Source: Candidatus Moraniibacteriota bacterium (GTDB lineage: Bacteria; Patescibacteriota; Minisyncoccia; Moranbacterales; UBA2206). From it: a DNA stretch of 64,000 nt. The notes below the pieces were generated by a model. That model saw only the letters and a list, made by a program, of their open reading frames with translations, made no database searches and had not been told where the DNA came from. Positions 8,613-54,651 of the stretch are shown here, in pieces. The first letter of the stretch is position 1; every line of letters starts with the position of its first letter. A program made the position numbers and the translations under genes. The stretch covers positions 10,328 through 74,327 of the forward strand of contig JAUXSK010000006.1 of assembly GCA_030679995.1 (NCBI GenBank). The letters are read 5' to 3'.

Positions 8613-8640
8613 AAATGGACCGTTAAGACGGATTAAATAC

Positions 8641-14111: not shown

Positions 14112-15155
14112 ATGGAAAACTTTTCGAAAAAAATTAAAACACCGCAATCGCCATCGGAAATAACAACCGAATGGTTAGAGGGCATACTTAATAATACTTC
14201 AACCAACGAAATTGTCTCTATAGAATCAGATGATAGATTTAAGCCTGGCGGACACTTGGGAAAAATTGAAAAAGTTAAAATCACTTATGCTTCTCCTGAA
14301 TTTGAGCCGAAATCGGTAATTGTAAAATTTCAAAAATGTTCTGACCCAAAAAAAGAAGCGGAAATTTATCGACTCTTGGGGGAAGCGAAAATTTCATACA
14401 TCCCTCATTTATATGGGAAGTTTGGAGATGGGAACCTGGTCTTAGAAGATTTGTCCTCGACTCATTCAGTAATAAAAGATTTTGATATTAATCAAGTCCA
14501 AAAAGTAATCTCACTCCTTGCGGATGTTAATAGTAGATTCTGGGGCAATTCCGAGGTGCCGAAAGACAACCTGAGCCATTTCATTAATTCGATTAACATC
14601 AATTTTGAAAAAGGTTGGGAAAAATTTAAAAATCGATACGGAGAAAAACTCGGAAAGGAAATTGCCGATTTCGAATGGATATGGAAAAATCGTGAAATCG
14701 TTTCTGGTCATTACAATTCAAGCCCGACAACTTTATGCCATGGCGATGTAAACAGGTCTAATATTCTTTTCTCAAATGACAAAAGCAACAATCCAGTACT
14801 TATCGACTGGCAACTTTCCGGACAAAAAGTATTTCCTTTTGATATTTCTTATTTTCTGGTGAAAGCGCTAAGCGCAGAACAAAGACAAGAACATGAGAGT
14901 ACTTTGCTTAAAGAATATTATAAACTGCTGTCCGAAGAAATACGGTCAAATTATCCTTTCGATATTTTTATTTTAGATTATCGGGCATGCGCAACAAGGT
15001 CAATGCTTAGCGCAGTAACAAAATTTGGGCCGATATTCGAAAAGGATTTTAGTTATGACAAGGCCGATGAATTAGCAGAAAGAGTTATTGATGCCGTAAG
15101 AGACCTTAGACCTATAGAAGCCATTCAAGAATTACAAAATGTCAGGAGTTTTTAA
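14112..15155 (+). CDS. aminoglycoside-phosphotransferase/choline-kinase (APH/ChoK, Pkinase-like) family small-molecule kinase
   Basis: The Brenner catalytic motif is 'LCHGDVNRSNILF' (HGDxxxxN) and 'LIDWQ' matches the IDW/DFG-equivalent. Size 347 aa with a Lys-containing N-lobe. GC content is visibly lower than in flanking genes. Confidence 0.7.
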   Translation: MENFSKKIKTPQSPSEITTEWLEGILNNTSTNEIVSIESDDRFKPGGHLGKIEKVKITYASPEFEPKSVIVKFQKCSDPKKEAEIYRLLGEAKISYIPHLYGKFGDGNLVLEDLSSTHSVIKDFDINQVQKVISLLADVNSRFWGNSEVPKDNLSHFINSININFEKGWEKFKNRYGEKLGKEIADFEWIWKNREIVSGHYNSSPTTLCHGDVNRSNILFSNDKSNNPVLIDWQLSGQKVFPFDISYFLVKALSAEQRQEHESTLLKEYYKLLSEEIRSNYPFDIFILDYRACATRSMLSAVTKFGPIFEKDFSYDKADELAERVIDAVRDLRPIEAIQELQNVRSF

Positions 15156-24958: not shown

Positions 24959-26239
24959 ATGCAAGAAGAACAATCGGTACATCCGGCAGTGTATGAAGAG
25001 GAGAAGAATCATCGGCTTTTCAAACGGTATTTCTTGTTTTTCATCGTGCTGTTCCTGGTGGTCGGAAGTTTTTGGATCGGCTATACAAATGGCCAGAAAT
25101 CGACGGAATCGGCAAATCAAAGTTATCCTATCGATTCGACCGTTGTCACGAATAAATTCCTGACAGGAGAAAGGGAAGTGGACTTTGATCTTTTTTGGAA
25201 AGTTTGGGATTTGCTCAAGGAAAAGTATGTCAATCATGATTCTCTGGACGCGCAGGAGTTGGTCTATGGCGCGATCAAAGGAATGTTGGCGGCGACGAAG
25301 GATCCCTATACGACTTTTTTCGATCCCAAGGAAACCCAGGAATTCGACCAGGATATCAGCGGGAGCTTTGAGGGAATCGGAGCGGAACTCGGAGTGAAGG
25401 ATGGGATACTGACGGTCATCGCTCCACTGGACGGTTCGCCGTCGCAAAAGGCCGGGCTTCTGGCTGGAGATAAAATTTTGCAAATCGACGGCAAATCGAC
25501 GACGGATGTGTCGATCGATCAAGCAGTCGATCTCATACGCGGCAAGAAAGGTTCGCAAGTGAAATTGGTAATTTTACATAAAGGCGATCAGGAGACTACG
25601 GAGATTTCGATAACCCGCGAAATGATCAAGGTCAAGAGTGTTAAAATCGAATTCAAGGAAAATAATATCGCATATTTGAAAATAAACCAATTTGGCGAAA
25701 AAACTTCCGATGAGTTCGATGCGGCGATGAATCAGATAATCTCCCGCGGTTCGAAAGGGGTTGTCTTAGATTTGCGCAATAATCCCGGAGGCTTTCTGAC
25801 TTCATCGGTTGAAATCGCCAGCCGCTTGATTCCTCGGGGAAAAGTGGTCGTGACCGAAGAAGATGGAGCCGGCAAGAAAGATAGTTTATATACCGGCGGC
25901 GGCGATAAACTTAGCGGAATTCCGACGGTAGTCTTGATAAATGAAGGCAGCGCCAGCGCCTCGGAGATTTTGGCGGGCGCTTTGCGGGATAATCGGAACA
26001 TCCAACTGATCGGGAAAAAATCATTCGGCAAAGGTTCGGTGCAGGAGTTGATCAGTCTGCCGAACAAATCTAGCGTCAAGATAACCGTGGCTAAATGGCT
26101 GACGCCCAACGGTGATTATATAATGGAAAAGGGCATCAGTCCGGATATCGATGTGGACTTGACCGTGGATGATTTCAAAAACGACCGGGATCCGCAACTT
26201 GACCGGGCAATGGAAAAGATCAAGGAAATAATGAAATAA
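24959..26239 (+). CDS. ctpA: C-terminal processing peptidase, S41 family (CtpA/Prc-like) with PDZ domain
   Basis: PDZ region 'GLLAGDKILQIDGKSTTDV'. Catalytic region 'VVLDLRNNPGGFL' and 'GSASASEILAGAL' (Ser/Lys dyad context). Confidence 0.85.
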   Translation: MQEEQSVHPAVYEEEKNHRLFKRYFLFFIVLFLVVGSFWIGYTNGQKSTESANQSYPIDSTVVTNKFLTGEREVDFDLFWKVWDLLKEKYVNHDSLDAQELVYGAIKGMLAATKDPYTTFFDPKETQEFDQDISGSFEGIGAELGVKDGILTVIAPLDGSPSQKAGLLAGDKILQIDGKSTTDVSIDQAVDLIRGKKGSQVKLVILHKGDQETTEISITREMIKVKSVKIEFKENNIAYLKINQFGEKTSDEFDAAMNQIISRGSKGVVLDLRNNPGGFLTSSVEIASRLIPRGKVVVTEEDGAGKKDSLYTGGGDKLSGIPTVVLINEGSASASEILAGALRDNRNIQLIGKKSFGKGSVQELISLPNKSSVKITVAKWLTPNGDYIMEKGISPDIDVDLTVDDFKNDRDPQLDRAMEKIKEIMK

Positions 26240-26291
26240 AATTTTGTTCCTAAGGCTGAATGTTAGATACACTAATAATTAAGCAAACAAA

Positions 26292-27236
26292 ATGGAATTA
26301 TTGAGGACTTTCCGGAACTTGGGTAAAGGCGATGCTGGCTTGGCAGGAGGCAAAGGCGCTTCATTGGGCGAAATGACACAATCCGGCATTCCGGTGCCAC
26401 CCGGTTTTGTGGTTTTGGCCGGGACTTTCGAGAAATTTCTGGAAGAAACTGATTTGGGCGTCGAGGTTGATGCGATTCTGCATACAGTGGATCACAATGC
26501 GATGCATACGGTCGAAGAAGCTTCGGAAAAAATCCAGACTTTGATTAAGAACGCCCAGATGCCAGGAGATATCGCCAAGGAGATAGAAAGGGAATTTAAA
26601 AAACTCGGCGCTGAATTTGTGGCAGTGCGATCGAGTGCGACAGCGGAAGACGGAGCGGAAAACGCCTGGGCAGGACAGTTGGATTCTTATCTCAATACGA
26701 CCGAGAAAGACTTACTAGAAAAAGTCCAACATTGTTGGGCTTCACTTTTTACTCCCAGAGCCATTTTTTATCGGTTTGAAAAAAATCTTCACAAGCAAAA
26801 AATTTCGGTGGCGGTGGTAGTGCAAAAAATGGTGGAGAGCGAATTTTCCGGCATCGCTTTTTCGGTGCATCCGGTGACAGAGGACTACAATCAGCTCATC
26901 ATCGAAGCCGGTTTCGGCTTGGGCGAAGCGATCGTATCCGGACAAATCACCCCAGACAGTTATGTGGTGGAAAAAAATCCGAGGAATATTTTGGATATCA
27001 ACGTTTCTACGCAGGAACGCGGAATTTATCGGGCGAAAAACGGCGGCAACGAGTGGCGGGATATTCCCGAGCCGCAAGCGTCCGCGCAAGTCCTGACGGA
27101 AAAACAAATTTTGGAATTGTCGGAAATAATCCTTGGCATCGAAAAACATTACGGTTTTCCTTGCGATATCGAATGGGCGTTCGAGGGCGGCAAATTCTAC
27201 ATCGTCCAAAGCCGGCCGATTACGACTTTAAATTAA
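26292..27236 (+). CDS. stand-alone PEP-synthase/PPDK N-terminal ATP-grasp nucleotide-binding domain protein (PPDK_N)
   Basis: 'GGKGASLGEM' and 'VAVRSSATAEDGAENAWAGQ' are signature PpsA/PPDK_N motifs. The terminal 'DIEWAFEGGKFYIVQSRPITT' is the final ATP-grasp motif. The protein stops there (314 aa) with no phosphohistidine or TIM-barrel domain. Confidence 0.8.
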   Translation: MELLRTFRNLGKGDAGLAGGKGASLGEMTQSGIPVPPGFVVLAGTFEKFLEETDLGVEVDAILHTVDHNAMHTVEEASEKIQTLIKNAQMPGDIAKEIEREFKKLGAEFVAVRSSATAEDGAENAWAGQLDSYLNTTEKDLLEKVQHCWASLFTPRAIFYRFEKNLHKQKISVAVVVQKMVESEFSGIAFSVHPVTEDYNQLIIEAGFGLGEAIVSGQITPDSYVVEKNPRNILDINVSTQERGIYRAKNGGNEWRDIPEPQASAQVLTEKQILELSEIILGIEKHYGFPCDIEWAFEGGKFYIVQSRPITTLN

Positions 27237-27345
27237 GAAGTCTTGGTGGATTATCCCAATATTGTAGCTGGCTGGATAAAGGTTATTCGATGCCGGCTGA
27301 ATTCAGCGGAGGTGGGCGCGAAGCGGGGGCTGGGATAATAATTAG

Positions 27346-28197
27346 TTGTATATGAATATGACTGGAAAAAAACTTCCCTGGAACAAGCAATTGGCAAAAG
27401 ATTGGAAAAATTATCCCGCGCCCGTCAGACCGGGACTGGAAATGGCTATATACGAAAAAATCATCAAAAGGGTTCTTGCAGGCAATAAGAATCCGAGGAT
27501 TTTAATTTTGGGGTCGACGCCGGAATTCCGCGATTTGCTTTTGAAGCATAAAATAACGCCGATTTGTTGCGATGTGAATCCGGAGGTATATAAGGCGTTG
27601 AAGATTTTAATGGAAAGGAATGGAAAAGAATTATTCGTTGAATCTGACTGGCTTGATCTGGACGATGCGCATAGATTCGACTTGATAATGGGCCATAACG
27701 TTATCAATATGATCCCGATAAATAAACAAGGCCTTTTTATAAAAAATATTGCCGACAATTTGAAGCCGGATGGGATATTCGCGACTACCGTAGTAATACG
27801 TCCGGTACGCAAAGACGTAAATCCGGCTGATGGGTTTGAAAGATACAGGAAGCTGCGAATCAAGACGGGCAAAAAAATGCTTTTTATGATATCTTACCCG
27901 GACCTGGTGTTTTCAATAGGGCAGAAAAAAGGATATTATACGCCGTCCGGAATATTATCGAAGTTGCGCGATATGCGTAGAAAACGGATTATTGATGATC
28001 CGGAATTTAAGACGATGCTTGAATTTATTAAGCCGAGCAGCCTGAAAATCAGATTGCCGCTAAGGGACAAGTTGGAAAATACTTTTAATAAATATTATCT
28101 GATTGAAGATGTCAAAAGCATAACCGATAAATATTTCGATCCCAGCTATTGGCCCATTTATATTTTAAGAAAAAATGGATATTCCCAAAAATTATAA
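27346..28197 (+). CDS. class-I SAM-dependent methyltransferase-like protein, LCM/TcmP-like (carboxyl/O-methyltransferase) family; paralog of the 50171-55509 array
   Basis: 'ILILGSTPEFRDLL' aligns with the LCM/TcmP motif I 'vvxLGAGlDTRayRL'. It is followed by 'CDVNPE' (acidic post-I), 'SDWLDL' and 'FDLIMG'. The N-terminal 'W..x..RPG' motif is shared with the six paralogs. Confidence 0.45.
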   Translation: MYMNMTGKKLPWNKQLAKDWKNYPAPVRPGLEMAIYEKIIKRVLAGNKNPRILILGSTPEFRDLLLKHKITPICCDVNPEVYKALKILMERNGKELFVESDWLDLDDAHRFDLIMGHNVINMIPINKQGLFIKNIADNLKPDGIFATTVVIRPVRKDVNPADGFERYRKLRIKTGKKMLFMISYPDLVFSIGQKKGYYTPSGILSKLRDMRRKRIIDDPEFKTMLEFIKPSSLKIRLPLRDKLENTFNKYYLIEDVKSITDKYFDPSYWPIYILRKNGYSQKL

Positions 28198-29695
28198 AGA
28201 AATAATTGAAAAATCTATCCAGGGCGAATGGCACTTGTTGGGCAATCGGAATGCCCCGCCATTTTTGCTTTGGCTTAAGATGCTAGCTTTGAATAGTGAT
28301 GAAATGAGAAGGATATATGGTACGACCGTAACGGGAGCTGTTATCTACAAGGATTCATTTATCAAATTTTATTTTTTGAGCGATACATTTAAAGAAGTTA
28401 TTAAGTCAGCCACTGAGATATTATTTTCTGAGAATAAGGCGAAAGGTCAATTGGATCAAGTATTGATTTTGCAAGATTATGCCAGAAAGAAAGCGGCTTT
28501 TTTTCTGGAGGAAGATTTAAGAAATTTGAGCGACGGGGAATTATGGAAAAAATATGAAGAAGCCGCCGCTTGCTATGTCAGGCCCCTTCTTTACGGATTT
28601 CTGACTTGGTGCGTTCCGGTTTTCACTGATTATGCCAAATCGATATTAAGGAAACACTTTGATAAGATAGTCGGATTCGATGTGGATGAAAAAACCGCTT
28701 TTGGAATATTGATCACTCCGCATGAGAGATCCCCATATTCCGAAAAAAACGAAGCTCTCGATCGATTGGCGATAAAATATAAAAAACAAATTGGAGAAAT
28801 AAATGGAGATATGGAGGATAAGATAAAGGAAGAATGTCCCGAGTTGGATGCTGATATTTTGGAGTTTTTGGCCAAGTATAAATGGATCGGGTATGATTAC
28901 AGCGGTCCAGCCATTGATTATGGCGAAGTTTTGAAAGATATCAAGGAAAGAAGCCTTGGGATAAACATTGGAAAACAACGGAAAATAAGCAGGGATGGCA
29001 TCATTGAAAAGTGCGGCTTCAGCCCTTCCGAGAAAAACGTATTCGATATTTTTTCCCAACTTACTTACGTCAAGGATGCGCGGAACAGCGGGGATGATTT
29101 CATCCATTTTTGTTTGATAGAATATTTTTTCACTGAGGTCGGCAGAAGATTCGGTTTGACCAAGGAAGCGGTTCAGTTTTTATCTCCCGGGGAATTGGAA
29201 AAAATGTTAAAAGAAAATAAAGTTTACAGCGAGGAATATATAAACGAAAAAAAGAGGTGCTATGTCGCTACCACTATCGACAAAGAAGGAATCAAGAAAT
29301 ATTACGCAGGAAATGAGGCTGAGAAATTTCTAAACAAAATAGAAAAAAAGATAGACCATAGTGAAACAAGAGAATTCAGAGGAACCGTGGCTTGTATCGG
29401 AAAAGTTACGGCAAGAGTTAAAATAGTAAATACTTTTGAAGAATTGTATAAAATAAAAGAAGGAGATGTTTTGGTAACGCATATGACAAGCCCCAGATTC
29501 ATGTCTGCGATTAAAAAGGCGGGCGCGATAATCACCAATGAGGGAGGAGTGACTTGCCACGCCGCTATCATCTCCCGCGAATTTAAAATCCCTTGCATCG
29601 TCGGCACTAAAATCGCCACGCAAGTCTTGAAAGATGGGGATTTGGTGGAGGTGGATGCGGATAAGGGGATCGTGAGAATATTGAATAAATCGTGA
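28175..29695 (+). CDS. PEP-utilizing-enzyme phosphohistidine (swivel) domain protein with divergent N-terminal putative substrate-binding domain (rifampin-phosphotransferase/PEP-synthase-like), paralog 1
   Basis: The C-terminal ~100 aa 'GTVACIGKVTARVKIV...[49 protein letters not shown]' is the PEP-utilizers mobile domain with the catalytic His. The N-terminal ~380 aa is helical and unassigned. Confidence 0.75.
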   Translation: MDIPKNYKEIIEKSIQGEWHLLGNRNAPPFLLWLKMLALNSDEMRRIYGTTVTGAVIYKDSFIKFYFLSDTFKEVIKSATEILFSENKAKGQLDQVLILQDYARKKAAFFLEEDLRNLSDGELWKKYEEAAACYVRPLLYGFLTWCVPVFTDYAKSILRKHFDKIVGFDVDEKTAFGILITPHERSPYSEKNEALDRLAIKYKKQIGEINGDMEDKIKEECPELDADILEFLAKYKWIGYDYSGPAIDYGEVLKDIKERSLGINIGKQRKISRDGIIEKCGFSPSEKNVFDIFSQLTYVKDARNSGDDFIHFCLIEYFFTEVGRRFGLTKEAVQFLSPGELEKMLKENKVYSEEYINEKKRCYVATTIDKEGIKKYYAGNEAEKFLNKIEKKIDHSETREFRGTVACIGKVTARVKIVNTFEELYKIKEGDVLVTHMTSPRFMSAIKKAGAIITNEGGVTCHAAIISREFKIPCIVGTKIATQVLKDGDLVEVDADKGIVRILNKS

Positions 29696-29729
29696 TATAA
29701 TAAAAACATAAATATTTAAGAATAAATTT

Positions 29730-30677
29730 ATGGGTTTCGAAGAAGGCGACCCTAAAGAAATAACACTTGAAAAAGAACCCAAATATGTCTTTATGATCAC
29801 AAGGCATGCGGAAAGGCTGGCCTCGGGTGAGCTTTCTCCCGAGGGCGTTGAAAACGCAAGTGGGAAAGGCGGGCAGATCGGAGAAATGGCCGAGGTACTG
29901 AAGGCCTATGCCAGTGATGAAAAAAGTGACCGGGCTTTTGTCACGGGCGATCTCATTTCTGAAAAAAGCGGAATCAAATCGGAATTAACCGGGAAACAGT
30001 ATGTTACGCGCAAAGTCGAGGATATACAATATGGGATATTAAATCCGGATTTGAAAAAACAATTAGGTAAAGCTTCTGATTTGATCAATGAAGAAACTCT
30101 GCGGGAATTAGGTGAATCAACTGAAAGAGACGAAAATGGAAAATTGAAAGTCGATCTTACGAAATTGCCTGATCAAGAAAAAATCGCACCGATCCGGGCC
30201 AAAAACCAAGTAGTCGGATTCAGATATATCCTAAGGGAAGAAAACGATGAGGCAGTAACTCGAATGGCTATGGGGCTGGCACAACAATTGAATCACGAAT
30301 TTGAAATAGCCGGAAGATATAATGATAGATATAGGAGCGGAGAGGATGCTAACTTTAAAAAAGATGCTGTCTTAAATACCGTTACCCACGGTATGTTTAT
30401 GGAATCTTTGTTGAAAAAAACTGGCATTATGATAGGAAAGGATGAGCAGGAAATGCCAATTTCCGATTTTGAAAGCGAGGGCTTCGGCGGTTTCATCGAT
30501 ACTAACGAATCGATCTATTTGGATATCAAGAATCCAAACGATCTGCCGGATAAAATACCGGTCAGGTTCGAGGGCGGCAATAGGCCGGCGGAAGGCAAGG
30601 TTTTTATCGACAAAAAGAAATTGCTGGCATTGGTGGACAAATATAAAGAATGGAAGGCGTCAAGAGAATCAGAATAA
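29730..30677 (+). CDS. histidine-phosphatase-superfamily (PGM-branch)-like protein
   Basis: 'FMITRHAERL' matches the RHG catalytic His motif and the later 'NTVTHGMFMESLL' matches the second His motif. Weak; family assignment by motif only. Confidence 0.4.
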   Translation: MGFEEGDPKEITLEKEPKYVFMITRHAERLASGELSPEGVENASGKGGQIGEMAEVLKAYASDEKSDRAFVTGDLISEKSGIKSELTGKQYVTRKVEDIQYGILNPDLKKQLGKASDLINEETLRELGESTERDENGKLKVDLTKLPDQEKIAPIRAKNQVVGFRYILREENDEAVTRMAMGLAQQLNHEFEIAGRYNDRYRSGEDANFKKDAVLNTVTHGMFMESLLKKTGIMIGKDEQEMPISDFESEGFGGFIDTNESIYLDIKNPNDLPDKIPVRFEGGNRPAEGKVFIDKKKLLALVDKYKEWKASRESE

Positions 30678-30695
30678 TCTTTTAATTACAACTAT

Positions 30696-32195
30696 ATGTC
30701 ATCAGCGGTCATGCATTCGGGGAAATGGAGAATCAAGCCTTCAGGCAAGCTTCCGATTTTCTTGCGTTTTATGATAAACTCTGCTTTTAACAAGGAGGAT
30801 ACTGGCAAAGTCGAAATTAAAACCGTGCTTTGCAACCGTACATTCTTGAACCATATGATGTATTGGGAAGCCTCGGAATATAACAGCTTCGAAAAAGAAG
30901 TGATTGACCATCTCAAGGCTAATGATGGCTGGTTTGAACGATATTGCCAGCGTGAATTGGAAGAATGCGAGAATCTGTATAAAAAAGGATTGGAACTTAA
31001 AAAAATCAATTGGAAAGAAAAAGACAATTCTGAGTTGAAGGAATCCTTGGCTGATATATTGAATAAATATAGGAGTCTGGTCGGCGCATGGTATGCGCAA
31101 TATCCGCTGGATGAATATTTTGAGAACGCGATTGAGAAAAATTTGGCGGAATATATCCCTTCTAGCGATTCTGTATTCAGGAACCTAGTGCTGACATTTA
31201 CCGATCCGGAAAAAGCGACCGAAGTGAGCCAGGAAAGGATAGCTCTATTGGAGATTGCGAAGGATTTTTTTGAAAAAATGGAGGATCTGGATGGATTATC
31301 GGCTGAGGCTAGGAATATTATTGATGATCATTTGGATAAATACGCCTATATAAACAGGGGATTGGCTACTAGCCGGCCCTATTCTTTTGAGGACATAATC
31401 AACCGTTTGAAAGAAATAAAAAAACAGGTGGATGCAGGAGAAAGGCTTGAAGATATGGCTTATAGCGCTTCCGAAGATAAAGTGGAGGCGGATTATAAAA
31501 CGGCACTGGATAAGATAAAACCTAAGCCTGACTTTCTGGAAATAATCAGAAAGGCCAAGCATCATTCATATTTGCGCAATAGGCGCGTAGAGGCCTTTTT
31601 CAACGCTGATTTCGGGGCAAGTTTCCTTTATTCCGAAATCGCTCGAAGGTCGGATTTCAACCCTGATGAAATCATGGAAATCACGGATGAAGAAATGTTC
31701 GGTGCACTGGAAGGGAAATCATTGCCTGATGCGGAAGAAATGGCTCGGAGGCATTCCAATTATGCCATGATCGTCCGTAATTCAAAGACGCAGCTTATTA
31801 CCGACCCGGAAGAAATAAAAAAAATGGAAAAAGATTATTTCGTCGATGTCGTTAAATCCGAGGAACTAAAAGGCAAAGTGGCATGTTCGGGAGGGGTCAT
31901 TCGCGGAAGGGCGAAAATTTGCCTGGATAAAAAGGATATCCCGAAAGTAAACAAAGGCGATATATTGGTCGCCCAATTCACTACCCCGGATTTCGTGGTG
32001 GCGATGGAAAAAGCGGCGGCTATTATAGCCGATCAGGGCGGATTGTCTTCGCATGCGGCGATCGTATCGAGGGAATTAGGCGTTCCTTGCGTGATGGATA
32101 CGAAAAACGGCACGAGGATAATCCATGATAATGATCTGGTGGAAGTGGATGCCAAAACCGGCGTGATAAAAATCATTGAACGGGCTACAAGTTAA
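30696..32195 (+). CDS. PEP-utilizing phosphohistidine-domain protein, paralog 2
   Basis: C-terminus 'GKVACSGGVIRGRAKIC...[49 protein letters not shown]'. N-terminal domain divergent, but shares the 'KY.(W/Y)I' motif with the paralogs. Confidence 0.75.
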   Translation: MSSAVMHSGKWRIKPSGKLPIFLRFMINSAFNKEDTGKVEIKTVLCNRTFLNHMMYWEASEYNSFEKEVIDHLKANDGWFERYCQRELEECENLYKKGLELKKINWKEKDNSELKESLADILNKYRSLVGAWYAQYPLDEYFENAIEKNLAEYIPSSDSVFRNLVLTFTDPEKATEVSQERIALLEIAKDFFEKMEDLDGLSAEARNIIDDHLDKYAYINRGLATSRPYSFEDIINRLKEIKKQVDAGERLEDMAYSASEDKVEADYKTALDKIKPKPDFLEIIRKAKHHSYLRNRRVEAFFNADFGASFLYSEIARRSDFNPDEIMEITDEEMFGALEGKSLPDAEEMARRHSNYAMIVRNSKTQLITDPEEIKKMEKDYFVDVVKSEELKGKVACSGGVIRGRAKICLDKKDIPKVNKGDILVAQFTTPDFVVAMEKAAAIIADQGGLSSHAAIVSRELGVPCVMDTKNGTRIIHDNDLVEVDAKTGVIKIIERATS

Positions 32196-32201
32196 AACCA
32201 T

Positions 32202-32792
32202 ATGATAAAAGCGATTTTTTTTGATTTGGGAAATGTCTTGGTAAAAGAGGGATTCGCCTCCGGAATCAGGGAATATGAAAAGGATAATTCCTTGGCGCCA
32301 GGCAGTCTTTACGCGGCAATGCGGGATTTTCCATACTGGAAGGATTTTACGCTGGGTAAAATTTCCGAAAAAGAATATTTCGATGAGGTGAATAGGGGTT
32401 TCAACGGCGGACTGGACGTAAATCGGTTAAGGGAGGTCGTGCTTGGGGGCTTCGTTCAAAATACCGAGCTTGTGGATCATATCAGGGCCTTGAAGAAAAA
32501 ATATAAAATCGGCGTCATTTCCAATAACCCCAAGGAGTGGTTTGGATATTTTTCCGATAACTTCGGATGGAACGGCATTTTCGATATCATCGCGGTGTCG
32601 GGTGATCTGCATATCCGCAAGCCGGCAAAAGAAATTTTTGACTATGCCCTCGCCCAAGCCGGGATATCGGGAGAGGAGGCTATCTATGTCGATGATCGTC
32701 CAGATCGAGTGGAGGGTGCCGTATTGGCGAGGATGAAAGTGGTAATTTTTAAGGATATAAAAAATTTAATTAGAGAAATAGATGAAAAATAA
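32202..32792 (+). CDS. HAD-superfamily hydrolase (subfamily IA, YihX-like sugar-phosphatase type)
   Basis: Motif I 'IFFDLGNVLV' (DxGNV variant as in YihX), motif II/III Ser/Lys, and motif IV 'IYVDDRPDRVEGA'. Confidence 0.65.
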   Translation: MIKAIFFDLGNVLVKEGFASGIREYEKDNSLAPGSLYAAMRDFPYWKDFTLGKISEKEYFDEVNRGFNGGLDVNRLREVVLGGFVQNTELVDHIRALKKKYKIGVISNNPKEWFGYFSDNFGWNGIFDIIAVSGDLHIRKPAKEIFDYALAQAGISGEEAIYVDDRPDRVEGAVLARMKVVIFKDIKNLIREIDEK

Positions 32793-33420
32793 TAAAACAT
32801 TGTATCTTTGGGATCTGGCCGGAACGATTTTCAGGGAGGAGTGGGATGCGGAGAAGACGGGATTTGCCGGATATTATGATTGGCTGGAAACCAGGCTTGG
32901 GAAAAAAATGAGCGAAATCACCCCAAGGGAGGAAGAGGAGATGTATAAGATCCCGTATGGCGAGGGGTGGTATTTCAAGTTGGATTTGATGCCGGGCGCC
33001 AAAGAATCTTTGGGATGGGCGGAGTACAGCGAAGTTTTCACCCAAGGCAATCCGGAGCAGATTGATTGGCGGGCGGAATATCTCACGCCAAGAATCGGAT
33101 TCGATGTGCGGAAATTTTTCAAGAAAATAAATTCGACTTTCGATTATGCGGAAACGAACGTGAAAACCAAAGAGATGCTTTTGGATTATTTGCGGAAAAA
33201 ATATGACGAAGGATTCAAAAGCGTAATTTATACTGATGACAAACTCAAAAATTGCGAAAATTTCGCAGAGGCTGCCAAGGAAATAAAAAAGGAATTCAGT
33301 GATTTTGACTATCGCTTGTACCACGTCTTAAATGATGGAAAGGGCCTGCGGGAAAAGGATAATTATTCAGAAATTGGAAGTTTGAATGACTTGATCGAAG
33401 CGGAGAGTAGGATCGTTTAG
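32782..33420 (+). CDS. hypothetical protein, possible divergent HAD-like hydrolase
   Basis: 'LYLWDLAGTIF' (DxxxT motif-I-like) and 'VIYTDDKL' (motif-IV-like DD). Low confidence. Confidence 0.3.
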   Translation: MKNNKTLYLWDLAGTIFREEWDAEKTGFAGYYDWLETRLGKKMSEITPREEEEMYKIPYGEGWYFKLDLMPGAKESLGWAEYSEVFTQGNPEQIDWRAEYLTPRIGFDVRKFFKKINSTFDYAETNVKTKEMLLDYLRKKYDEGFKSVIYTDDKLKNCENFAEAAKEIKKEFSDFDYRLYHVLNDGKGLREKDNYSEIGSLNDLIEAESRIV

Positions 33421-33437
33421 TTTTAACAAGAGAACAT

Positions 33438-34859
33438 ATGAACCGAACAGACTTAGAAGCAGTGTTTAAGAAGGATTGGTATATCCAAGGATTCAACGGC
33501 GTGCCGATTTTTTTGAACTCTTGCGCCGCAAGCATGGTGCCGATGAAAAAATATTTAGGATACGGGTATACCGGTTTCATCTGCATCTATCAGGATGATT
33601 ATTGCGAATATGGATATTTACACAGCGACCTGGCTGATGTTTGGAGGCAGGCAAAAAAGAAAATAGAAGAGAATAAGAATTATTTGGTAAAAATAAAAAA
33701 ACACTACGAAGAAGTTTTCAAAAAGCATCAAGCGATGTTCGATAATACGGGAATTGGTGAAATTGGCCGGATGGATGACGAGGAGCTTTTGGAATATTTC
33801 AAAAAAAGCTTGTCGGCTATGGCTGACTCCGTAGGTATCGCGCATGTCTTGGAGGGAATCGGTATGGAACTTGAAAAAGAATTGAAGGAGAAATTTTTTG
33901 AATTTTTAGAGGACAAGAAGGATTTCAACAAACATTTCGCCGTTATAACGGCTCCGACAAGGATTTCTTTTATAACCAGGGAAGAAAATGATCTTAAAAA
34001 AATCATGCGATTGGACGGAGAGGCGTTTGAAACAGCGCTTGAGATGCATTTAAAAAAATATTTTTGGATCCAAAACAGTTATGTCGGTCCGAAGAAAATC
34101 AGTGTCGAAATGCTTAAAGAAAGAATGGGAAGTATGGGTGTGGAAGCGGGAGGTGTCTCCGGACAGGAGGGTATTAAAAATATCAAATTAAGCCAGGAAT
34201 TGAAAGGGATGGTTGGAATAATCGATTTCTGCACGATTTGGCAGGATGAAAGGAAGGAAAATATATTGAGATCTATCAGTAATTTGGGTTTTGTCATAGA
34301 AGAATTGTCGTTGAGAACGGAAGTGTCCGCCCATACGCTATCATATTTGGGGGTGGATGATGTCATGGGCATGGAAACGATCGGGGAAGTGAAAGATATG
34401 GAAGGCGTATTGGCAGAAAGGATCCGAGGGGTTTTATTTTTGGTGGACGACAAGGGTGAACGCGATTTCACCGGCAATGCTTATTTGGAATATTCAAAAA
34501 AGAAGAAAGGAAGCGAAGCGGAGAAGCAAAATTTCGAAATGGATTTGCATGGCACGACAGCCAACGGCGGAACCGCTATCGGGCATGTGATCGTTTGCAA
34601 GGATATTGAAACCATAGAAAAGGTGAAAGAAGGCGATATTTTGGTCGCCTCTATGACTCGTCCCGAATTCATACCGGCCTTGAGAAAAGCGGCGGCTATC
34701 GTGACGGACGAAGGAGGCATTACTTGCCACGCGGCGATCGTGGCTCGGGAACTTGGCATCCCAGCCGTCATCGGCACGAAAATCGCGACTAAAATTTTGA
34801 AAGACGGCATGTTGGTCGAAGTCAAAGCTAATCATGGGTTGGTTAAAATAATAAAATAA
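33438..34859 (+). CDS. PEP-utilizing phosphohistidine-domain protein, paralog 3
   Basis: C-terminus 'GTTANGGTAIGHVIVC...GDILVASMTRPEFIPALRKAAAIVTDEGGITCHAAIVARELGIPAVIGT'. Confidence 0.75.
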   Translation: MNRTDLEAVFKKDWYIQGFNGVPIFLNSCAASMVPMKKYLGYGYTGFICIYQDDYCEYGYLHSDLADVWRQAKKKIEENKNYLVKIKKHYEEVFKKHQAMFDNTGIGEIGRMDDEELLEYFKKSLSAMADSVGIAHVLEGIGMELEKELKEKFFEFLEDKKDFNKHFAVITAPTRISFITREENDLKKIMRLDGEAFETALEMHLKKYFWIQNSYVGPKKISVEMLKERMGSMGVEAGGVSGQEGIKNIKLSQELKGMVGIIDFCTIWQDERKENILRSISNLGFVIEELSLRTEVSAHTLSYLGVDDVMGMETIGEVKDMEGVLAERIRGVLFLVDDKGERDFTGNAYLEYSKKKKGSEAEKQNFEMDLHGTTANGGTAIGHVIVCKDIETIEKVKEGDILVASMTRPEFIPALRKAAAIVTDEGGITCHAAIVARELGIPAVIGTKIATKILKDGMLVEVKANHGLVKIIK

Positions 34860-34860
34860 T

Positions 34861-36402
34861 ATGGACGCGCAAGAATTGAAAAAATATTTGGCGGAAAATG
34901 AAATCGACGTGCAAAGCGCCCGGGCGGCGTTCGGGGCGGCGGATTGGGTTTTCCGGGCCTATTCGGAATCGGCGCAGATTACCAGAGTCGGTCATAATCA
35001 CGTCCATTGCTATTTCGGTCCCGGAGAGGATGTCTTCTACCAATTGATTTCGCGGGATGATATCAAAAAAGTTTCCAAAAAGTTCTACGAAGATTATTTG
35101 GAAAACCCTGAGAGTATGCGAAACAAAATCCACGCCCAGCAAGAATTGGCTTTGGAAATCGATCGCTTGGGGTTGGAATATTTGGAAAAGTCAGGAAGTG
35201 GAGTTTCAGATGCGGAGTTTGCCAAATATTTTAGAAATATAATCGAGTTGGCTTATGAATGGTGGAAATATGCCGCTATCGGAGAAGACAAAGCGGAGGT
35301 GGTCAATTGGGAAGTCGTGCCTCGGTTCCAAAAACGTCATGGCATCAGTCGCGAAGAAGCGCGTGAAGCGGTGAGTGTGTTGGCGCATCCGGATGAGATG
35401 GCGGTTTTCAATCAGGAACGAAAGGATTTTTTTGAGATATGTTCGGCGGTTAACCGGCAAATCGATAGTTCTGGAAATGATGATTTCACTAAAGCATGGG
35501 AAGATAAAAATATTCAAAGCTTGGTCAACGAATATATCCGGAATTTTTTCTGGATCAAAACGAATCTTTATGAGGCGACGCGCGTAGATGGGTATTCATT
35601 GAAGGATGAAGTTAAAAATGAATTAAAAATGAAAAATGAAGCCGACCTGGAAAATGAACTGGCTAAAATAGAAGATAATTTCTCAAATATCCATGCTAGT
35701 AAAAATGAAATTAAAAAGCGCCATGCTCTAAGTGAGGCTGATTTGATGGATATTGAATTTTCCCAAAAGGCAATTTTGTGGTTTGATCAAAGGAAATCGG
35801 GAATGATGAAGCAATTCTATTACATCTATTCCATGCTGCGGGAAATCTCAGCGCGCAAACGAATGGATTACCATACCTGTACGTTATATTTTATGGAAGA
35901 GTTGTTTGATTTACTGAAAAGGAATGCGCAAGTCAATCCCACAGTTATCGCAGAAAGGGAAGGCGGGATATTCTTGGCTTTTGAACGAGGCAAGCGCAAT
36001 ATTTTTCTAGGCGATGAAGCCAAGGATTTATTCGGATTGGCCAGTAAAGTCGAACGCGCGGATGTTTTAAGGGGCGTGGTAGCTAGCCGGGGCGGCCAAG
36101 AAAAAGTCAGAGGAATCGTCAGTATCATCATCCGTCCGGATAAGAATGATTTTGAGGAAGGGAAAATTTTGGTGACCAGTATGACGCGGATCGAGTTCGT
36201 GCCGCTCATGAAAAAAGCGTTGGCGATCATCACCAATGAAGGCGGATTGGCCTGCCACGCAGCCATCGTTTCCCGGGAGCTCGGTTTGCCGGCGATTATC
36301 AGCACCAAGAATGCCACCCAAGTCTTGCAAGACGGGGATGAGATCGAGATGGATATGAAGACCGGGGAAATCAAGGTTATCGTGGCGATGTCTGCGGCCT
36401 AA
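34861..36402 (+). CDS. PEP-utilizing phosphohistidine-domain protein, paralog 4
   Basis: C-terminus '[49 protein letters not shown]'. Starts 2 nt after paralog 3. Confidence 0.75.
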
Positions 36403-36411
36403 TTATCCGGA

Positions 36412-36440
36412 TTTGCTATCCTCCCAATTTTTGCTATAAT
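36412..36440 (+). promoter_or_regulatory. putative promoter (TTGCTA-16-TATAAT) driving a leaderless rplI transcript
   Basis: TATAAT at 36435-36440 sits 6 nt before the rplI ATG (36447). The -35-like TTGCTA lies 16 nt upstream. Confidence 0.35.
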
Positions 36441-36446
36441 AGCTAT

Positions 36447-36887
36447 ATGAAAATCATCCTTCTACAAGATGTGAAAGGTCTCGGGAAAAAAGGCGCCATC
36501 AAAGAGGTAGCGGAGGGTTATGCGCGCAATTTTTTATTCGTGAAAAAATTAGCTGAAATCGCCACCGGATCAGGCTTGAAGAAGGCGGAGGCTATCCAGA
36601 AAAAGCAGGTGGAAAATGACCAGTTAGATTTGGAAAAGACACAGGAACTGGCCGACCGCTTGGAAGGCAGAGCGATCACGCTTATCGTCAAAGCCAAAGA
36701 TGGGAAGCTTTTTGGGTCGGTAGGGACCAAGGATATCGCAAAGGAATTGAAAAAGGAAAATATAATCGTGCCGGAAAAATCGATCGCACTCGAAAATCCG
36801 ATCAGGGAACTGGGAGAATATGAAGTGAAAATCGAACTGGACCACAAGATTGAAGCGATGATCATGGTGCTGGTTGAAAGCGCTTGA
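36447..36887 (+). CDS. rplI: 50S ribosomal protein L9
   Basis: '[31 protein letters not shown]' is the canonical L9 N-terminus. Confidence 0.85.
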
Positions 36888-36996
36888 TAAACACCTGTCT
36901 GCAAATGGATATACAATCATTTTTTTAAAAACCAGATATGAAGTCGCAAGGGGAGGCGGCTTTTTCGTTTGTAAAAAATAATTTTTTAATAACATT

Positions 36997-38634
36997 ATGA
37001 AAAACCGAAAATACATTTTTGTCGTCGGGGGGGTGATGAGCGGGGTGGGGAAGGGAGTTACGACTTCGGCGGTCGGAGCGATCCTCAAGGCGCGCGGGTT
37101 CCATGTGACGGCTTTGAAAATCGATCCCTATATCAATGTCGACGCCGGCACGATGAATCCGACCGAGCACGGCGAGGTTTTCGTATTGGATTCCGGATTG
37201 GAAACCGACCAGGATATGGGAAATTATGAAAGATTCCTGAATGTGACTTTGCCATCGGAAAATTATATGACGACCGGCAGCGTATATGAATCGGTCATCC
37301 ATAAAGAAAGGGATTTGAAATACAAGGGCAAATGCGTGGAAGTCGTGCCACACATCCCATTGGAAGTCATCGAGCGGATCGAAAAAGCTTCCGAAAAAGC
37401 CAAAGCGGATATCTCGATCATCGAAATCGGAGGCACGGTAGGCGAATATCAAAATATCTTGTTTTTGGAAGCAGCGCGAATGATGCGGATAAAACATCCG
37501 GATGACGTGCTGATCATTATGGTCAGTTATCTGCCGATCCCTTCCAAGATAGGCGAGATGAAAACCAAGCCAACGCAATACGCGGTGCGGACCTTGAACG
37601 GAGCCGGCATCCAGCCGGATTTCATCATCGCCCGCAGTGAAACATTCCTGGATCAAAGAAGAAAGGAGAAAATCGCGATGTTTTGCAATATTCCAGAGCG
37701 CGATGTGATTTCAGCTCCTGATATCGATAGTATCTATGAAGTACCGATTAATTTTGAACGGGATGATTTGAGTCGCTTAATATTAAAGAAGCTCGGTTTG
37801 AAATATGATAAGACCGATCTTTCAGGCTGGTATGACCTGGTGGAAAAAATCAAACATCCGAAAGGGACAGCCAGAATCGGAATCGTAGGCAAATATTTCG
37901 GCACGGGCGATTTTGTCTTGTCAGATGCCTACATCAGCGTGATCGAGGCGGTCAAACACGCGGCGTACCACAACCACGTCAAGCCGAAAATCGATTGGAT
38001 CAGCAGCGAAACCTATGAAAAGAATCCGGAAAAATTGGAAGAATTGAGGGGCTATGACGGCATCGTCATTCCGGGCGGATTCGGCTCACGTGGCATCGAA
38101 GGCAAAATACTGGCAATCGAATTTTTACGCAAAAATAAAATACCGTTTTTGGGACTTTGCTACGGGATGCAATTAGCCGTAATCGAATACGCGCGCAACG
38201 TCTTGGATCTCAAGGATGCCAATACGACCGAAGTCGACCGCAAAACGGGAAACCCGGTCATAGATATCATGCCTGAACAGAAAAAGAATTTGGAAGACGG
38301 AAATTATGGAGCTACGATGAGATTGGGAGCCTATTCAGCCGTCTTGCAAAAAGGCAGCATCGCCAACAAGGCCTATCGGGCCACTAAGATTTCCGAGCGC
38401 CATCGGCACCGTTGGGAAGTCAATCCGGAATATATCCAGCGCCTGGAAAAAGCGGGTCTTGTGTTTTCAGGAAAATCACCGGACGGCAAACTGATGGAAA
38501 TCACCGAATTGCCAACTTCGATCCATCCATTCTTCGTTTCAACCCAATTCCATCCGGAATTAAAGACCAATCCGCTCAAGGGACATCCTCTTTTCAACGA
38601 ATTTATCAAAGCCGGACAGAAATTGAAGAAATAA
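36997..38634 (+). CDS. pyrG: CTP synthase
   Basis: 'KYIFVVGGVMSGVGKGVTTSAVGAIL', 'IDPYINVDAGTMNP', and the GATase 'GLCYGMQ' with catalytic Cys. Typical length of 545 aa. Confidence 0.95.
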   Translation: MKNRKYIFVVGGVMSGVGKGVTTSAVGAILKARGFHVTALKIDPYINVDAGTMNPTEHGEVFVLDSGLETDQDMGNYERFLNVTLPSENYMTTGSVYESVIHKERDLKYKGKCVEVVPHIPLEVIERIEKASEKAKADISIIEIGGTVGEYQNILFLEAARMMRIKHPDDVLIIMVSYLPIPSKIGEMKTKPTQYAVRTLNGAGIQPDFIIARSETFLDQRRKEKIAMFCNIPERDVISAPDIDSIYEVPINFERDDLSRLILKKLGLKYDKTDLSGWYDLVEKIKHPKGTARIGIVGKYFGTGDFVLSDAYISVIEAVKHAAYHNHVKPKIDWISSETYEKNPEKLEELRGYDGIVIPGGFGSRGIEGKILAIEFLRKNKIPFLGLCYGMQLAVIEYARNVLDLKDANTTEVDRKTGNPVIDIMPEQKKNLEDGNYGATMRLGAYSAVLQKGSIANKAYRATKISERHRHRWEVNPEYIQRLEKAGLVFSGKSPDGKLMEITELPTSIHPFFVSTQFHPELKTNPLKGHPLFNEFIKAGQKLKK

Positions 38635-50170: not shown

Positions 50171-51028
50171 TTATGCTTTTTTCAATATCGCGGTCCATTT
50201 CAATCTCATTGCGGGATGGGTCTTGTCGCGAAATTCAGAAATCAATGTGAATTTTTTGCTTAGCATATTCTTAAATTCTTCCTCGCTTAACATAGGTTGC
50301 TGATAATCAACGCCGATGGTTAATTTCCCAACAGCTTCCGCGGGAAGCAATCCTTTATCGGCCAGCTCCTTGATTTTCAGTTCTATTTTGTGAAAATCAA
50401 AAAGCCTGTTTTCTTCGTTATAAAATTCTTCGTTATATGCTAACCGGATAATCTGCAATAAAAAATATCTGAAGTCATTGAATTTTCCAGGATTGTTTTT
50501 GTATGAATCCACATATTCCTTGAAGCTTATCACATCATCCCGGTGGACATTTATCGCTCCGAAAAACCACTCTCCTCCCGGTTTCAAAACCCGTGCTATT
50601 TTTTCAAAAAAAGCTTCAAATTCTGAAAATTTAATATTGTCCTGCGCCGAATCACTCATGACAAAGTCAAAAGTACCGTCTTTGATGGGCATATTCAGCC
50701 AGTCTGAAATTACGACCTTTTCCTTTTCATTTTTTAGTGCCATAAGGGACGTCATAGCCCGCACTGAATCAGGATTGATGTCCACAATAGTCGTATTTAT
50801 GCCGTATTTAGCCAATAAATCCCTAAATTCAGGGGTTGATCCTAATATAAGGGCACAAGGCGTCTTATTGTTTTCCAGCTTATTTTTTATTTCTTGCTCA
50901 AAAAAAGCGATTTCACCGACTGATGGCTTTCCGGGCGGCATGAACTTCGCCCAAGCTTTTGCTAACTCTTTCCAATTTTCCCGCATCCTAGTCCTCTGAA
51001 TACTGGCCATAGTGTGACAAATTAACAT
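50171..51028 (-). CDS. LCM/TcmP-like SAM-methyltransferase-like protein, tandem paralog 1 of 6
   Basis: 'ALILGSTPEFRDLLAKYGINTTIVDINPD...SDWLNM...FDFVMSD', and N-terminal 'W..F.PPGKPS'. Confidence 0.45.
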   Translation of the reverse strand: MLICHTMASIQRTRMRENWKELAKAWAKFMPPGKPSVGEIAFFEQEIKNKLENNKTPCALILGSTPEFRDLLAKYGINTTIVDINPDSVRAMTSLMALKNEKEKVVISDWLNMPIKDGTFDFVMSDSAQDNIKFSEFEAFFEKIARVLKPGGEWFFGAINVHRDDVISFKEYVDSYKNNPGKFNDFRYFLLQIIRLAYNEEFYNEENRLFDFHKIELKIKELADKGLLPAEAVGKLTIGVDYQQPMLSEEEFKNMLSKKFTLISEFRDKTHPAMRLKWTAILKKA

Positions 51029-51109
51029 TTATATTTCTGGTTATCTTTATCGGCATCGCTGTCAATCATATGCCATATTTACATTTTTTCATATTATACA
51101 ATATGGGCA

Positions 51110-51982: not shown

Positions 51983-51997
51983 TCCCCTTATTATATA

Positions 51998-52855: not shown

Positions 52856-52887
52856 ATTTTATTTCGGTAAATTTACCCGTTAAAAAT

Positions 52888-53745: not shown

Positions 53746-53750
53746 AAGGG

Positions 53751-54650: not shown

Positions 54651-54651
54651 C

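Follow-up and report, generated by a model that had tools for sequence, protein, structure and literature searches.

Dikinases of the phosphoenolpyruvate (PEP) synthase and rifampin phosphotransferase (RPH) class are known as single enzymes or as 1:1 pairs. The characterised split 1:1 dikinases are the phenylphosphate synthase PpsAB of Thauera, CreHI of Corynebacterium and HpeHI of Rhodococcus (PMC12167813), which act in trans via a transient complex and of which the HpeH-H581Q variant is inactive (PMC12167813). The known PpsA/HpeH large subunits share about 45% mutual identity. In this work we analysed a stretch of 64,000 nucleotides (nt) from Candidatus Moraniibacteriota bacterium (contig JAUXSK010000006.1, positions 10,328 to 74,327 of the forward strand), hereafter the window, in which a nine-gene cluster at 26292-36402 encodes one ATP-grasp protein and four proteins ending in a phosphohistidine swivel domain, a fifth protein of the latter kind being encoded elsewhere. 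We consider, with a probability of about 0.7, that these genes encode a multi-component RPH-type ATP-dependent dikinase composed of one ATP-grasp protein and five acceptors. A one-to-many enzyme of this class, with up to five phosphohistidine modules per ATP site, would be new.

The ATP-grasp protein was named G1 and the five swivel-only proteins sw1 to sw5; the remaining genes of the cluster, G2, G4, G6 and G7, were treated as accessory genes and are described below. The genes of the proposed enzyme are as follows (aa, amino acids).

G1, 26292-27236, + strand: stand-alone PPDK_N/PpsA-type ATP-grasp protein, 314 aa, PF01326 only
sw1, 28175-29695, + strand: predicted RPH-like substrate-binding domain (about aa 1-395) and C-terminal phosphohistidine swivel; His462 at nt 29558-29560
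sw2, 30696-32195, + strand: substrate domain and swivel, 499 aa; PF00391 E 1.8e-24; His453 at nt 32052-32054
sw3, 33438-34859, + strand: substrate domain and swivel, 473 aa; PF00391 E 7.4e-26; His431 at nt 34728-34730
sw4, 34861-36402, + strand: substrate domain and swivel, 513 aa; PF00391 E 2.4e-23; His466 at nt 36256-36258
sw5, 59708-60937, - strand: unlinked fifth paralog, 409 aa; PF00391 E 1.8e-25; His368 at nt 59834-59836

All nine open reading frames (ORFs) of the cluster were found on the + strand at the coordinates first given; the gaps between them, initially annotated as 2-50 nt, range in fact from -23 to +109 nt. The cluster is flanked by ordinary core genes (LCP, S41 peptidase, rplI, pyrG and rpmA). 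Scanning of the window with our own hidden Markov models (HMMs) for the ATP-grasp, swivel and N-terminal domains detected exactly one ATP-grasp gene and five swivel genes. Related loci in other genomes were numbered from L001 onwards. All nine genes are also found, in unchanged order, between the same flanks and at 81-98% protein identity, on the contig L001, whose sequencing run is unrelated. Against this 92% ortholog cluster, the ratio of nonsynonymous to synonymous substitution rates (dN/dS) was 0.05-0.19 for every cluster gene, and the genes are under purifying selection. All of the proteins look soluble, because no hydrophobic segment in any of them reaches the score of a membrane helix.

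The first-pass annotation, which was made from the letters of the window, had proposed a Pfam search as a check of its domain assignments, and the search returned PF01326 only for G1 and PF00391 only for sw1 to sw5. G1 matched PF01326 (PPDK_N) with E 1.4e-98 over profile positions 3-312 of 328, and this was its sole Pfam match. Its ORF ends directly past the PPDK_N domain and the same stop is found in the independent assemblies L001 and L005, so that the description of the gene at 26292 as an ATP-grasp domain of 314 aa and nothing more holds in three assemblies. Residues Lys21 (nt 26352-26354) and Arg113 (nt 26628-26630) are invariant, and dN/dS against L001 is 0.049. In the NCBIfam models of PEP synthase, RPH and PigC/RedH, G1 covers only the first 315-340 or so positions and scores far below all cut-offs; with the rifamycin phosphotransferase models NF041857 and NF000283, for example, the partial match reaches 289.7 bits against a cut-off of 999. 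The best 120 homolog clusters of G1 are 72-93% identical to it, have PF01326 only, come from Patescibacteria and are mostly about 313-350 aa long, a few being up to 447 aa. G1 would be the shared ATP-binding 'charger' of the sw proteins.

In each of sw1 to sw5 the C-terminal PEP-utilizers domain (PF00391) was the only significant Pfam match (E 1e-23 to 1e-26), and each protein has a GG..[CS]HAA motif with the catalytic His, which bears out the annotation of the four cluster genes; the status of the gene at 59708 as a fifth paralog is likewise supported, since sw5 carries PF00391 and aligns with sw1 over 306 aa (32% identity, E 1e-35). The possibility that the catalytic His might be absent on proper alignment had been raised at the outset. 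The His is invariant in the 36-sequence family alignment, and all of the 171 swivel modules from 80 other genomes have it. It lies near the C-terminus in a motif of the T/SxxGGxxxH type that is shared with the two-component dikinases, and the residue at position -2 from it is Thr, Ser or Ala in this family. No significant Pfam match beyond PPDK_N and PEP-utilizers, including any to the PEP/pyruvate-binding TIM barrel, was obtained for G1 or the sw proteins. The matches of the sw proteins to Epimerase_2 (inside the swivel domain), XRN_M, Rotamase and GGDEF were below cut-off and were taken as chance.

Between the paralogs of the window, pairwise identity is 13-19% (about 15%) for the N-terminal domains and 41-51% (about 46%) for the swivel domains. 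A conserved swivel combined with a divergent N-terminal domain is the pattern expected if all five proteins dock on one partner. The N-terminal regions are thus as divergent as first described; the accompanying statement that they share only short motifs did not hold, because homology extends over the whole of the proteins (the alignment of sw1 with sw3 spans about 500 aa at 27% identity, E 7e-37). Against L001, dN/dS of the swivel genes is 0.07-0.19 (sw2, 0.07; sw3, 0.19; sw4, 0.16). Orthologs of sw2 with 56-60% identity occur in L085 and L087, beside orthologs of G4, G6 and G7, and a full-length ortholog of sw4 with 37.5% identity occurs in L087. The gene of sw5 is directly abutted downstream by a gene for a DUF7670 protein of 121 aa (59341-59706, - strand, E 2e-28), and since the two abut they are probably co-transcribed. 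A LigT-type 2H phosphoesterase gene (58233-58775, - strand) lies two to three genes downstream of sw5, and another LigT gene lies just upstream of PPDK_N in L002 (L002:820-1464); LigT was considered as a general partner and rejected, as it was found in none of the 79 other loci and its presence is probably a coincidence.

The N-terminal domain was analysed by structure prediction. The AlphaFold2 model of sw1, based on the family alignment, has a mean predicted local distance difference test score (pLDDT) of 90.6. When the model was compared with the PDB by Foldseek, the top six matches were all Listeria RPH (470-589 columns, E about 1e-12, template modelling score up to 0.60), and all later significant matches (E up to 0.001) were dominated by the swivel-type domain. 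The N-terminal 390 residues of the model align with the rifampin (RIF)-binding domain of RPH and with nothing else. The predicted fold of sw1 equals the RIF-binding plus swivel domains of RPH. A parallel is HpeH, for which RPH is also the only solved structure covering the large subunit (PMC12167813). At the sequence level, a profile of the family matches residues 650-866 of RPH (E 1.7e-27) and places K304-D305-A-R307-N308 of sw1 opposite R666-E667-Y-P-K670 of RPH, of which Arg666, Glu667 and Lys670 are needed for the second phosphotransfer (Stogios et al., PMC4844700). The first-pass annotation had also allowed that the N-terminal regions might be degraded ATP-grasp domains. This is excluded because the model of the sw1 N-terminal domain matches the RPH substrate domain and the profile reaches the catalytic stretch of RPH; the dN/dS values and the retention of the His in every module agree with this.

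The modules fall into two size classes. The short modules, of about 360 aa (for example in L012, L034, L078, L082 and L084), correspond to the middle and swivel parts of the common fused proteins of about 680 aa and have the same N-terminal domain minus an insert of about 110 residues (hhalign probability 97.9%). The insert of the long class, to which the window type belongs, bears a KYxWxGYDYxGP motif. A single-sequence search with the sw1 N-terminal domain against 1.84 billion representatives recovered only 151 proteins, and therefore such a search is ill suited to estimating how large this fast-diverging family is.

When one genome per species was scanned, 600 stretches matched and at least 559 of them were confirmed as relatives. 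The best 80 loci of these, from 80 different genome records and with 66-89% identity in the ATP-grasp, were taken for a census, in which genes were called by our own greedy ORF calls and taxon labels were those of the records, some labels of metagenome-assembled genomes (MAGs) being plainly unreliable. The ATP-grasp carriers among them belong to candidate phyla radiation (CPR) lineages and to DPANN archaea. Of the 79 loci with a callable ATP-grasp gene, 45 have the ATP-grasp fused to one swivel module (about 670-860 aa), and 15 of these 45 also have neighbouring swivel-only genes; 22 have a stand-alone ATP-grasp with 0-5 swivel-only genes beside it, several being cut by contig ends; and in the other 12 the ATP-grasp is fused in one ORF to 2-5 modules. 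Every multi-module polypeptide contains exactly one ATP-grasp. The large single ORFs, of 1543-2396 aa with one ATP-grasp and three to five tandem modules, are L045:9977-17050 (2358 aa, five swivels), L033:9977-17164 (2396 aa, four swivels), L037:5535-11621, L083:241-6228, L024:9959-14587 and L064:9950-15202, and they occur in both DPANN archaea and CPR bacteria. Of all the evidence gathered here, such fusions argue most strongly that one ATP-grasp works with several modules.

The one-to-many layout thus recurs in distant genomes, among them the census loci with a stand-alone ATP-grasp and swivel-only genes. In a relative with swivel proteins of only 35% identity, seven PEP-utilizers genes come after a single stand-alone PPDK_N gene, and a gene of a low-molecular-weight protein tyrosine phosphatase (LMW-PTP) and a His_Phos_1 gene are interleaved. 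The ratio of ATP-grasp to swivel genes ranges from 1:1 up to 1:7 in the relatives and is 1:5 in the window. Histidine-phosphatase-like genes account for 40 of the 1089 genes of the census loci, and 34 of the 40 immediately adjoin a grasp or swivel gene, as do all 7 LMW-PTP-like genes. The phosphatase association is therefore real at the level of gene neighbourhood. In one related cluster a PhdYeFM-type antitoxin gene with a small partner ORF is inserted between swivel genes (L085:1566-2175).

In a quick neighbour-joining distance tree of the ATP-grasp, calculated with no support values, neither the three architectures nor the archaeal sequences group apart, all being interspersed. L006 (84% identical), which is the closest relative beyond the clade of the window, has the fused form in the same place after the S41 peptidase gene. 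Because of this interspersion and of the fused form in L006, fission and fusion look recurrent. Two archaeal contigs, L084 and L033, carry archaeal markers beside the locus: on one of them a NOG1 GTPase, on the other GatD together with an ATP-dependent DNA ligase. The 66-89% identity between CPR and DPANN sequences, the scattering of archaeal sequences in the tree and the archaeal markers in the flanks together point to repeated inter-domain transfer of the ATP-grasp.

The accessory genes of the cluster are as follows.

G2, 27346-28197, + strand: class I S-adenosylmethionine (SAM)-methyltransferase-like protein, 283 aa, below Pfam cut-offs
G4, 29730-30677, + strand: divergent protein of the histidine phosphatase superfamily, 315 aa, with R25-H26-A-E-R29-x-P; His26 at nt 29805-29807
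G6, 32202-32792, + strand: HAD-IA phosphatase, 196 aa, with a YihX-like DLGNV motif I
G7, 32782-33420, + strand: conserved protein, 212 aa, possibly HAD-like, which is not established

G4 had no Pfam or NCBIfam match. It was matched by an HMM built from the His_Phos_1 neighbours of the related loci (E 5e-14), and its family comprises 56 proteins, every one of them annotated as hypothetical and lacking a Pfam match; a protein 100% identical to G4 in a public collection is a hypothetical protein of a Candidatus Moranbacteria MAG, and a look-up gave no contig for it. Residues R25, H26, R29, R68 and H220 are conserved in a 46-sequence alignment. RHGxRxP is the signature of branch-2 histidine acid phosphatases, and the RHAERxP of G4 resembles it. 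The AlphaFold2 model of G4 (pLDDT 92) gave 93 PDB matches at E up to 0.001 in Foldseek, and all 50 of those listed belong to the histidine phosphatase superfamily (phytase, MINPP, prostatic acid phosphatase, BPGM and TIGAR). By predicted structure and motif, G4 is a histidine phosphatase, as the first reading of this gene between two swivel genes had it. The orthologs of G4 (about 50% identity) always adjoin swivel-only genes.

G6 passed the cut-off of PF00702 (58.2 bits against 26.4) and has motif I, FFDLGNV, at residues 6-12. Its matches to the NCBIfam families TIGR02253, YjjG and glucose-1-phosphatase are below cut-off. Its annotation as a YihX-like HAD phosphatase was upheld, the YihX-type glucose-1-phosphatase match itself being weak. 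In L087 the orthologs of sw2 and G4 enclose an ortholog of G6 (44%). As to the supposed second HAD-like ORF, G7 is a conserved gene (dN/dS 0.16 against L001) that is possibly HAD-like, with only faint matches (DUF2608, E 0.012; HAD_SAK_1, E 0.029) and a D11-x-x-G-T15 motif. Its ortholog in L085 (43%) is directly upstream of the sw2 ortholog. Judged by their joint occurrence in L085 and L087, sw2, G4, G6 and G7 appear to form a conserved sub-module.

For G2, the methyltransferase-like character stood and the specific tie to LCM did not. Its matches to Methyltransf_12, Methyltransf_25 and Methyltransf_11 are all below cut-offs (for example 22.7 against 30 and 18.9 against 21.2). Six paralogs at 50171-55509 share 30-42% identity with it, and the four among them that score above the Methyltransf_11 cut-off match it with E 1e-20 to 1e-26; its orthologs were found only in L001 and L005, and its dN/dS against L001 is 0.14. 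PDB sequence searches with G2, G4 and G7 gave matches at chance level only. The six paralogs form a tandem array of class I SAM-methyltransferases on the - strand (285-366 aa, four of them 285 aa; 39.7% GC), whose N-terminal halves are conserved and C-terminal halves divergent. The array is a second paralog expansion with the same pattern of a conserved catalytic part and a variable part.

The mechanism that we propose rests on homology to RPH and to the two-component HpeHI, CreHI and PpsAB; for this locus we infer that charging occurs in trans, in which direction the reaction runs, that the substrates are small molecules and what the phosphatases do. The ATP-grasp cleft of G1 would bind ATP, and the C-terminal swivel of each of the five sw proteins would dock on G1 in turn. 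The invariant swivel His would attack the beta-phosphate of ATP, with the gamma-phosphate lost as inorganic phosphate (Pi) and AMP released. The phospho-His domain would then return to the RPH-like helical domain of the same protein, where a bound small molecule bearing a hydroxyl group would receive the phosphate. One conserved ATP-binding hub might in this way feed several fast-evolving, substrate-specific acceptors, and G4, G6 and perhaps G7, together with the methyltransferase G2, might act on the phosphorylated products or on later intermediates. Small-molecule substrates, perhaps sugars or polyols, are favoured because G4 is nearest to phytase, MINPP and acid phosphatases and G6 is nearest to sugar-phosphate and nucleotide phosphatases. 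The central idea of the first-pass annotation, an RPH-type dikinase split into one ATP-grasp protein and several substrate/swivel proteins, is supported by the domains, the RPH fold, the intact His, the recurrence of the one-to-many layout and the fusions. Its further ideas, a combinatorial system and phosphatases that reset it, are conjectures about function.

Several observations weigh against this proposal. With as many as three phosphatase-like genes next to it, a kinase would drive a futile cycle if all the enzymes worked at one step and in one compartment. The pair aligned with Arg666 and Glu667 of RPH is partly conserved, being R-N in sw2, and sw5 is without the downstream Arg. The NCBIfam models of the PRK08296 group, taken here to represent PpsA/HpeH-like proteins, match only the swivel part of the sw proteins, below cut-off. 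The portion of the genome in view is the window, and the remaining genome may encode another ATP-grasp. Moreover, linkage of swivel genes to PPDK_N is not obligatory, because sw5 lies 23 kb from the cluster on the opposite strand and swivel genes occur in L086 and L087 with no PPDK_N within 8 kb. These unlinked genes are what would be seen if the swivel-only proteins acted without G1, either shuttling phosphate between metabolites or being charged by another donor such as another ATP-grasp or a PEP-dependent enzyme, and HpeH alone does move phosphate from 4-phosphoacetophenone to acetovanillone (PMC12167813). We regard such G1-independent action as unlikely, since 12 independent genomes fuse one ATP-grasp to 2-5 modules, the gene adjacency recurs, and the window has no second ATP-grasp and, among its proteins scanned, no match to the PEP/pyruvate-binding TIM barrel. 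The idea that PEP synthase or RPH genes in decay left the swivel genes behind as fragments, pseudogenes or annotation artefacts is already refuted. Its appeal was superficial and came from the partial regions matched below cut-off by the NCBIfam models of PEP synthase (100-326 bits against cut-offs of 598-740 for cluster proteins with TIGR01418 and NF005057). With the rifamycin phosphotransferase models the sw proteins reach at most 74 bits against 999. The dN/dS values of 0.07-0.19, ORFs intact in three assemblies, orthologs down to 37-60% identity, the confident AlphaFold2 model and the invariant catalytic His all speak against it.

Two further explanations concern what the phosphate is used for. 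The system might be a regulatory phosphohistidine system acting on proteins, with the neighbouring phosphatases as resetters of phosphoproteins or phospho-His of the SixA kind. A precedent is VadK of M. tuberculosis, a PPDK-derived, autophosphorylating protein with ATP-grasp and swivel that has turned into a regulatory kinase binding metabolic enzymes (PMC13400623); the tight linkage of the phosphatases, and the fact that LMW-PTP is a protein phosphatase family, would also fit. We nevertheless consider a regulatory role quite unlikely, because the N-terminal domain of sw1 is predicted to fold like the domain with which RPH binds its small molecule, small molecules are what every characterised relative that has this domain phosphorylates, and the nearest structures of G4, its RHGxRxP-like motif and the resemblance of G6 to phosphatases of sugar phosphates and nucleotides suggest small-molecule chemistry. 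Alternatively, the system might run in reverse, so that a symbiont short of energy would use scavenged high-energy phosphometabolites, together with AMP and Pi, to form ATP. PPDK is reversible, PEP synthase runs in reverse in Thermococcus, and CPR and DPANN organisms are energy-limited fermenters. This support from family reversibility and energy limitation is of a general kind; the phosphomonoesters that are the products of all known RPH-like enzymes are too low in group-transfer potential, and the linked phosphatases would waste the donors, so that reverse operation seems very improbable. The ATP-driven phosphorylation of small molecules by one charger and several acceptors is the explanation that we prefer.

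The base composition and divergence of the cluster are uneven. G1 has a GC content of 47.8% and a synonymous divergence (dS) against L001 of 0.94, close to the flanking core genes (46-47% GC, dS 0.65-1.35). The stretch from G2 through G7 has 38.7-43.5% GC and dS 0.12-0.39, and sw3 and sw4 have 42.3% and 44.7% GC and dS 0.48 and 0.69, respectively. The earlier statement that the cluster and the unlinked paralog are richer in AT than neighbouring core genes is thus correct for G2 to sw4 (41.9% GC combined) and for sw5 (34.6% GC) and incorrect for G1. Synonymous divergence over 26292-38634 is a mosaic. Because the interior dS is 0.12-0.69 against 0.65-1.35 for the flanks and G1, the cluster interior may have been exchanged between the lineages of the window and L001 more recently than the surrounding genome. 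Because both GC and dS differ in this way, G1 appears, in this comparison of two genomes only, to behave as a core gene, and the modules and accessory genes as more mobile or recently exchanged content.

Other features of the window were also recorded. Scans for tRNAs and Rfam families gave no matches in the window. In a promoter and terminator scan of 25800-37200 the counts were at the level of shuffled sequence, giving no trustworthy operon boundaries. The PADLOC models of anti-phage defence assigned no system membership, and their sole match, a weak one, was of G2 to the methyltransferase region of mad2. A small-molecule kinase like APH, choline kinase and ecdysteroid kinase is encoded at 14112-15155 (+ strand) in a 36.6% GC island at 13-16 kb, and an RtcB RNA ligase at 7119-8774 (- strand). 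Envelope-glycopolymer genes are abundant at 1-25000 and 57512-58222 (five GT4/GT1-type glycosyltransferases, a Wzx/MurJ-like flippase, Wzy_C, PMT_2, LCP and WecG/TagA). This envelope-polysaccharide synteny was considered as a functional clue and left unused, since it is kept only in close relatives of the cluster.

Taken beyond this locus, CPR bacteria and DPANN archaea might share, via repeated inter-domain transfer, a hub-and-spoke platform of ATP-driven phosphorylation, with a single conserved charger and plug-in modules that are gained, lost, fused and split freely, often with a phosphatase of their own. We offer this tentatively, at slightly less than even odds. If true, the platform would let symbionts with minimal genomes phosphorylate, in a compact way, many small molecules that they scavenge or obtain from the host, or, like RPH, inactivate antibiotics, in this case those of the host. 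Conserved genes of CPR and DPANN organisms without known function are a main obstacle to understanding their life on hosts. The present family is widespread, with at least 559 relatives confirmed. In metabolic reconstructions its genes now go by the names 'PEP synthase', 'pyruvate, water dikinase' or 'phenylphosphate synthase'. Since the present results do not support these labels, it is unsafe to infer gluconeogenesis or phenol degradation from them. One DPANN paper inferred phenol degradation from 'phenylphosphate synthase' matches of this kind, and in a CPR survey PEP-synthase HMM matches needed manual domain checks.

In the comparison with PEP synthase and PPDK, the ATP-grasp and swivel domains nearest in sequence to those of the cluster are those of PEP synthase, including the GGxT[CS]H motif. 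The swivel of these enzymes is central and followed by a TIM barrel in the same enzyme, whereas the swivel of the cluster proteins is C-terminal, no TIM-barrel match is seen and the scores are below the cut-offs. RPH (PDB 5FBS, 5FBT and 5HV1) has, like the cluster, an ATP-grasp, a helical substrate-binding domain and a His swivel in the same order. No other structure matched sw1 over its full length and none matched it better, and a basic/acidic pair is aligned at Arg666/Glu667. It differs in being one polypeptide with one module, its identity to the cluster proteins is 14-18%, and the scores with the NCBIfam RPH models are far below cut-off; unlike for RPH, there is no indication of a rifamycin substrate here.

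Looser likenesses exist to two other systems. In the phosphotransferase system, a hub-and-spoke phosphorelay runs from EI to HPr to many EII. By analogy, one charging enzyme feeds many substrate-specific acceptors, and the swivel His domain is homologous; the donor there is PEP and here ATP, HPr and EII have no counterpart here, and the swivel is on the hub there and on the acceptor side here. Plant glucan and phosphoglucan water dikinases use the same mechanism of ATP-grasp and His domain and cycle with the SEX4 and LSF2 phosphatases on the same substrate. They differ in their CBM45 substrate domains, polymer substrate, eukaryotic hosts and other domain order, and their substrate domains are not expected to be homologous to the N-terminal domains of the sw proteins.

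The closest likeness is to HpeHI, CreHI, PpsAB and AcvAB, in which a separate ATP-grasp protein is likewise accompanied by a separate protein with an RPH-like substrate domain and a C-terminal His swivel. In these systems charging is in trans and the catalytic His is essential, as is proposed for the cluster. The known two-component dikinases are 1:1 pairs of Actinobacteria and Proteobacteria that start phenolic catabolism; the cluster has a 1:5 ratio with phosphatases and a methyltransferase, in a CPR genome and with no aromatic-catabolism context. Its acceptors are of 409-513 aa, compared with about 71 kDa for HpeH, and where RPH and HpeH have Met at position -2 relative to the His, they have Thr, Ser or Ala, in line with the PEP-synthase-like GGxT[CS]H. 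Relatives of the cluster fuse up to five modules to one ATP-grasp, unlike the 1:1 known systems. As the 1:1 split is already known, the novelty is narrower than the first reading implied. We found no literature on a one-to-many or multi-module form in CPR or DPANN organisms, a weak negative because most subscription journals lay outside the coverage, and this layout looks undescribed. What is distinct here is the 1:5 ratio, the multi-module fusions, the links to histidine, HAD and LMW-PTP phosphatases, the CPR and DPANN hosts and the GGxT[CS]H motif.

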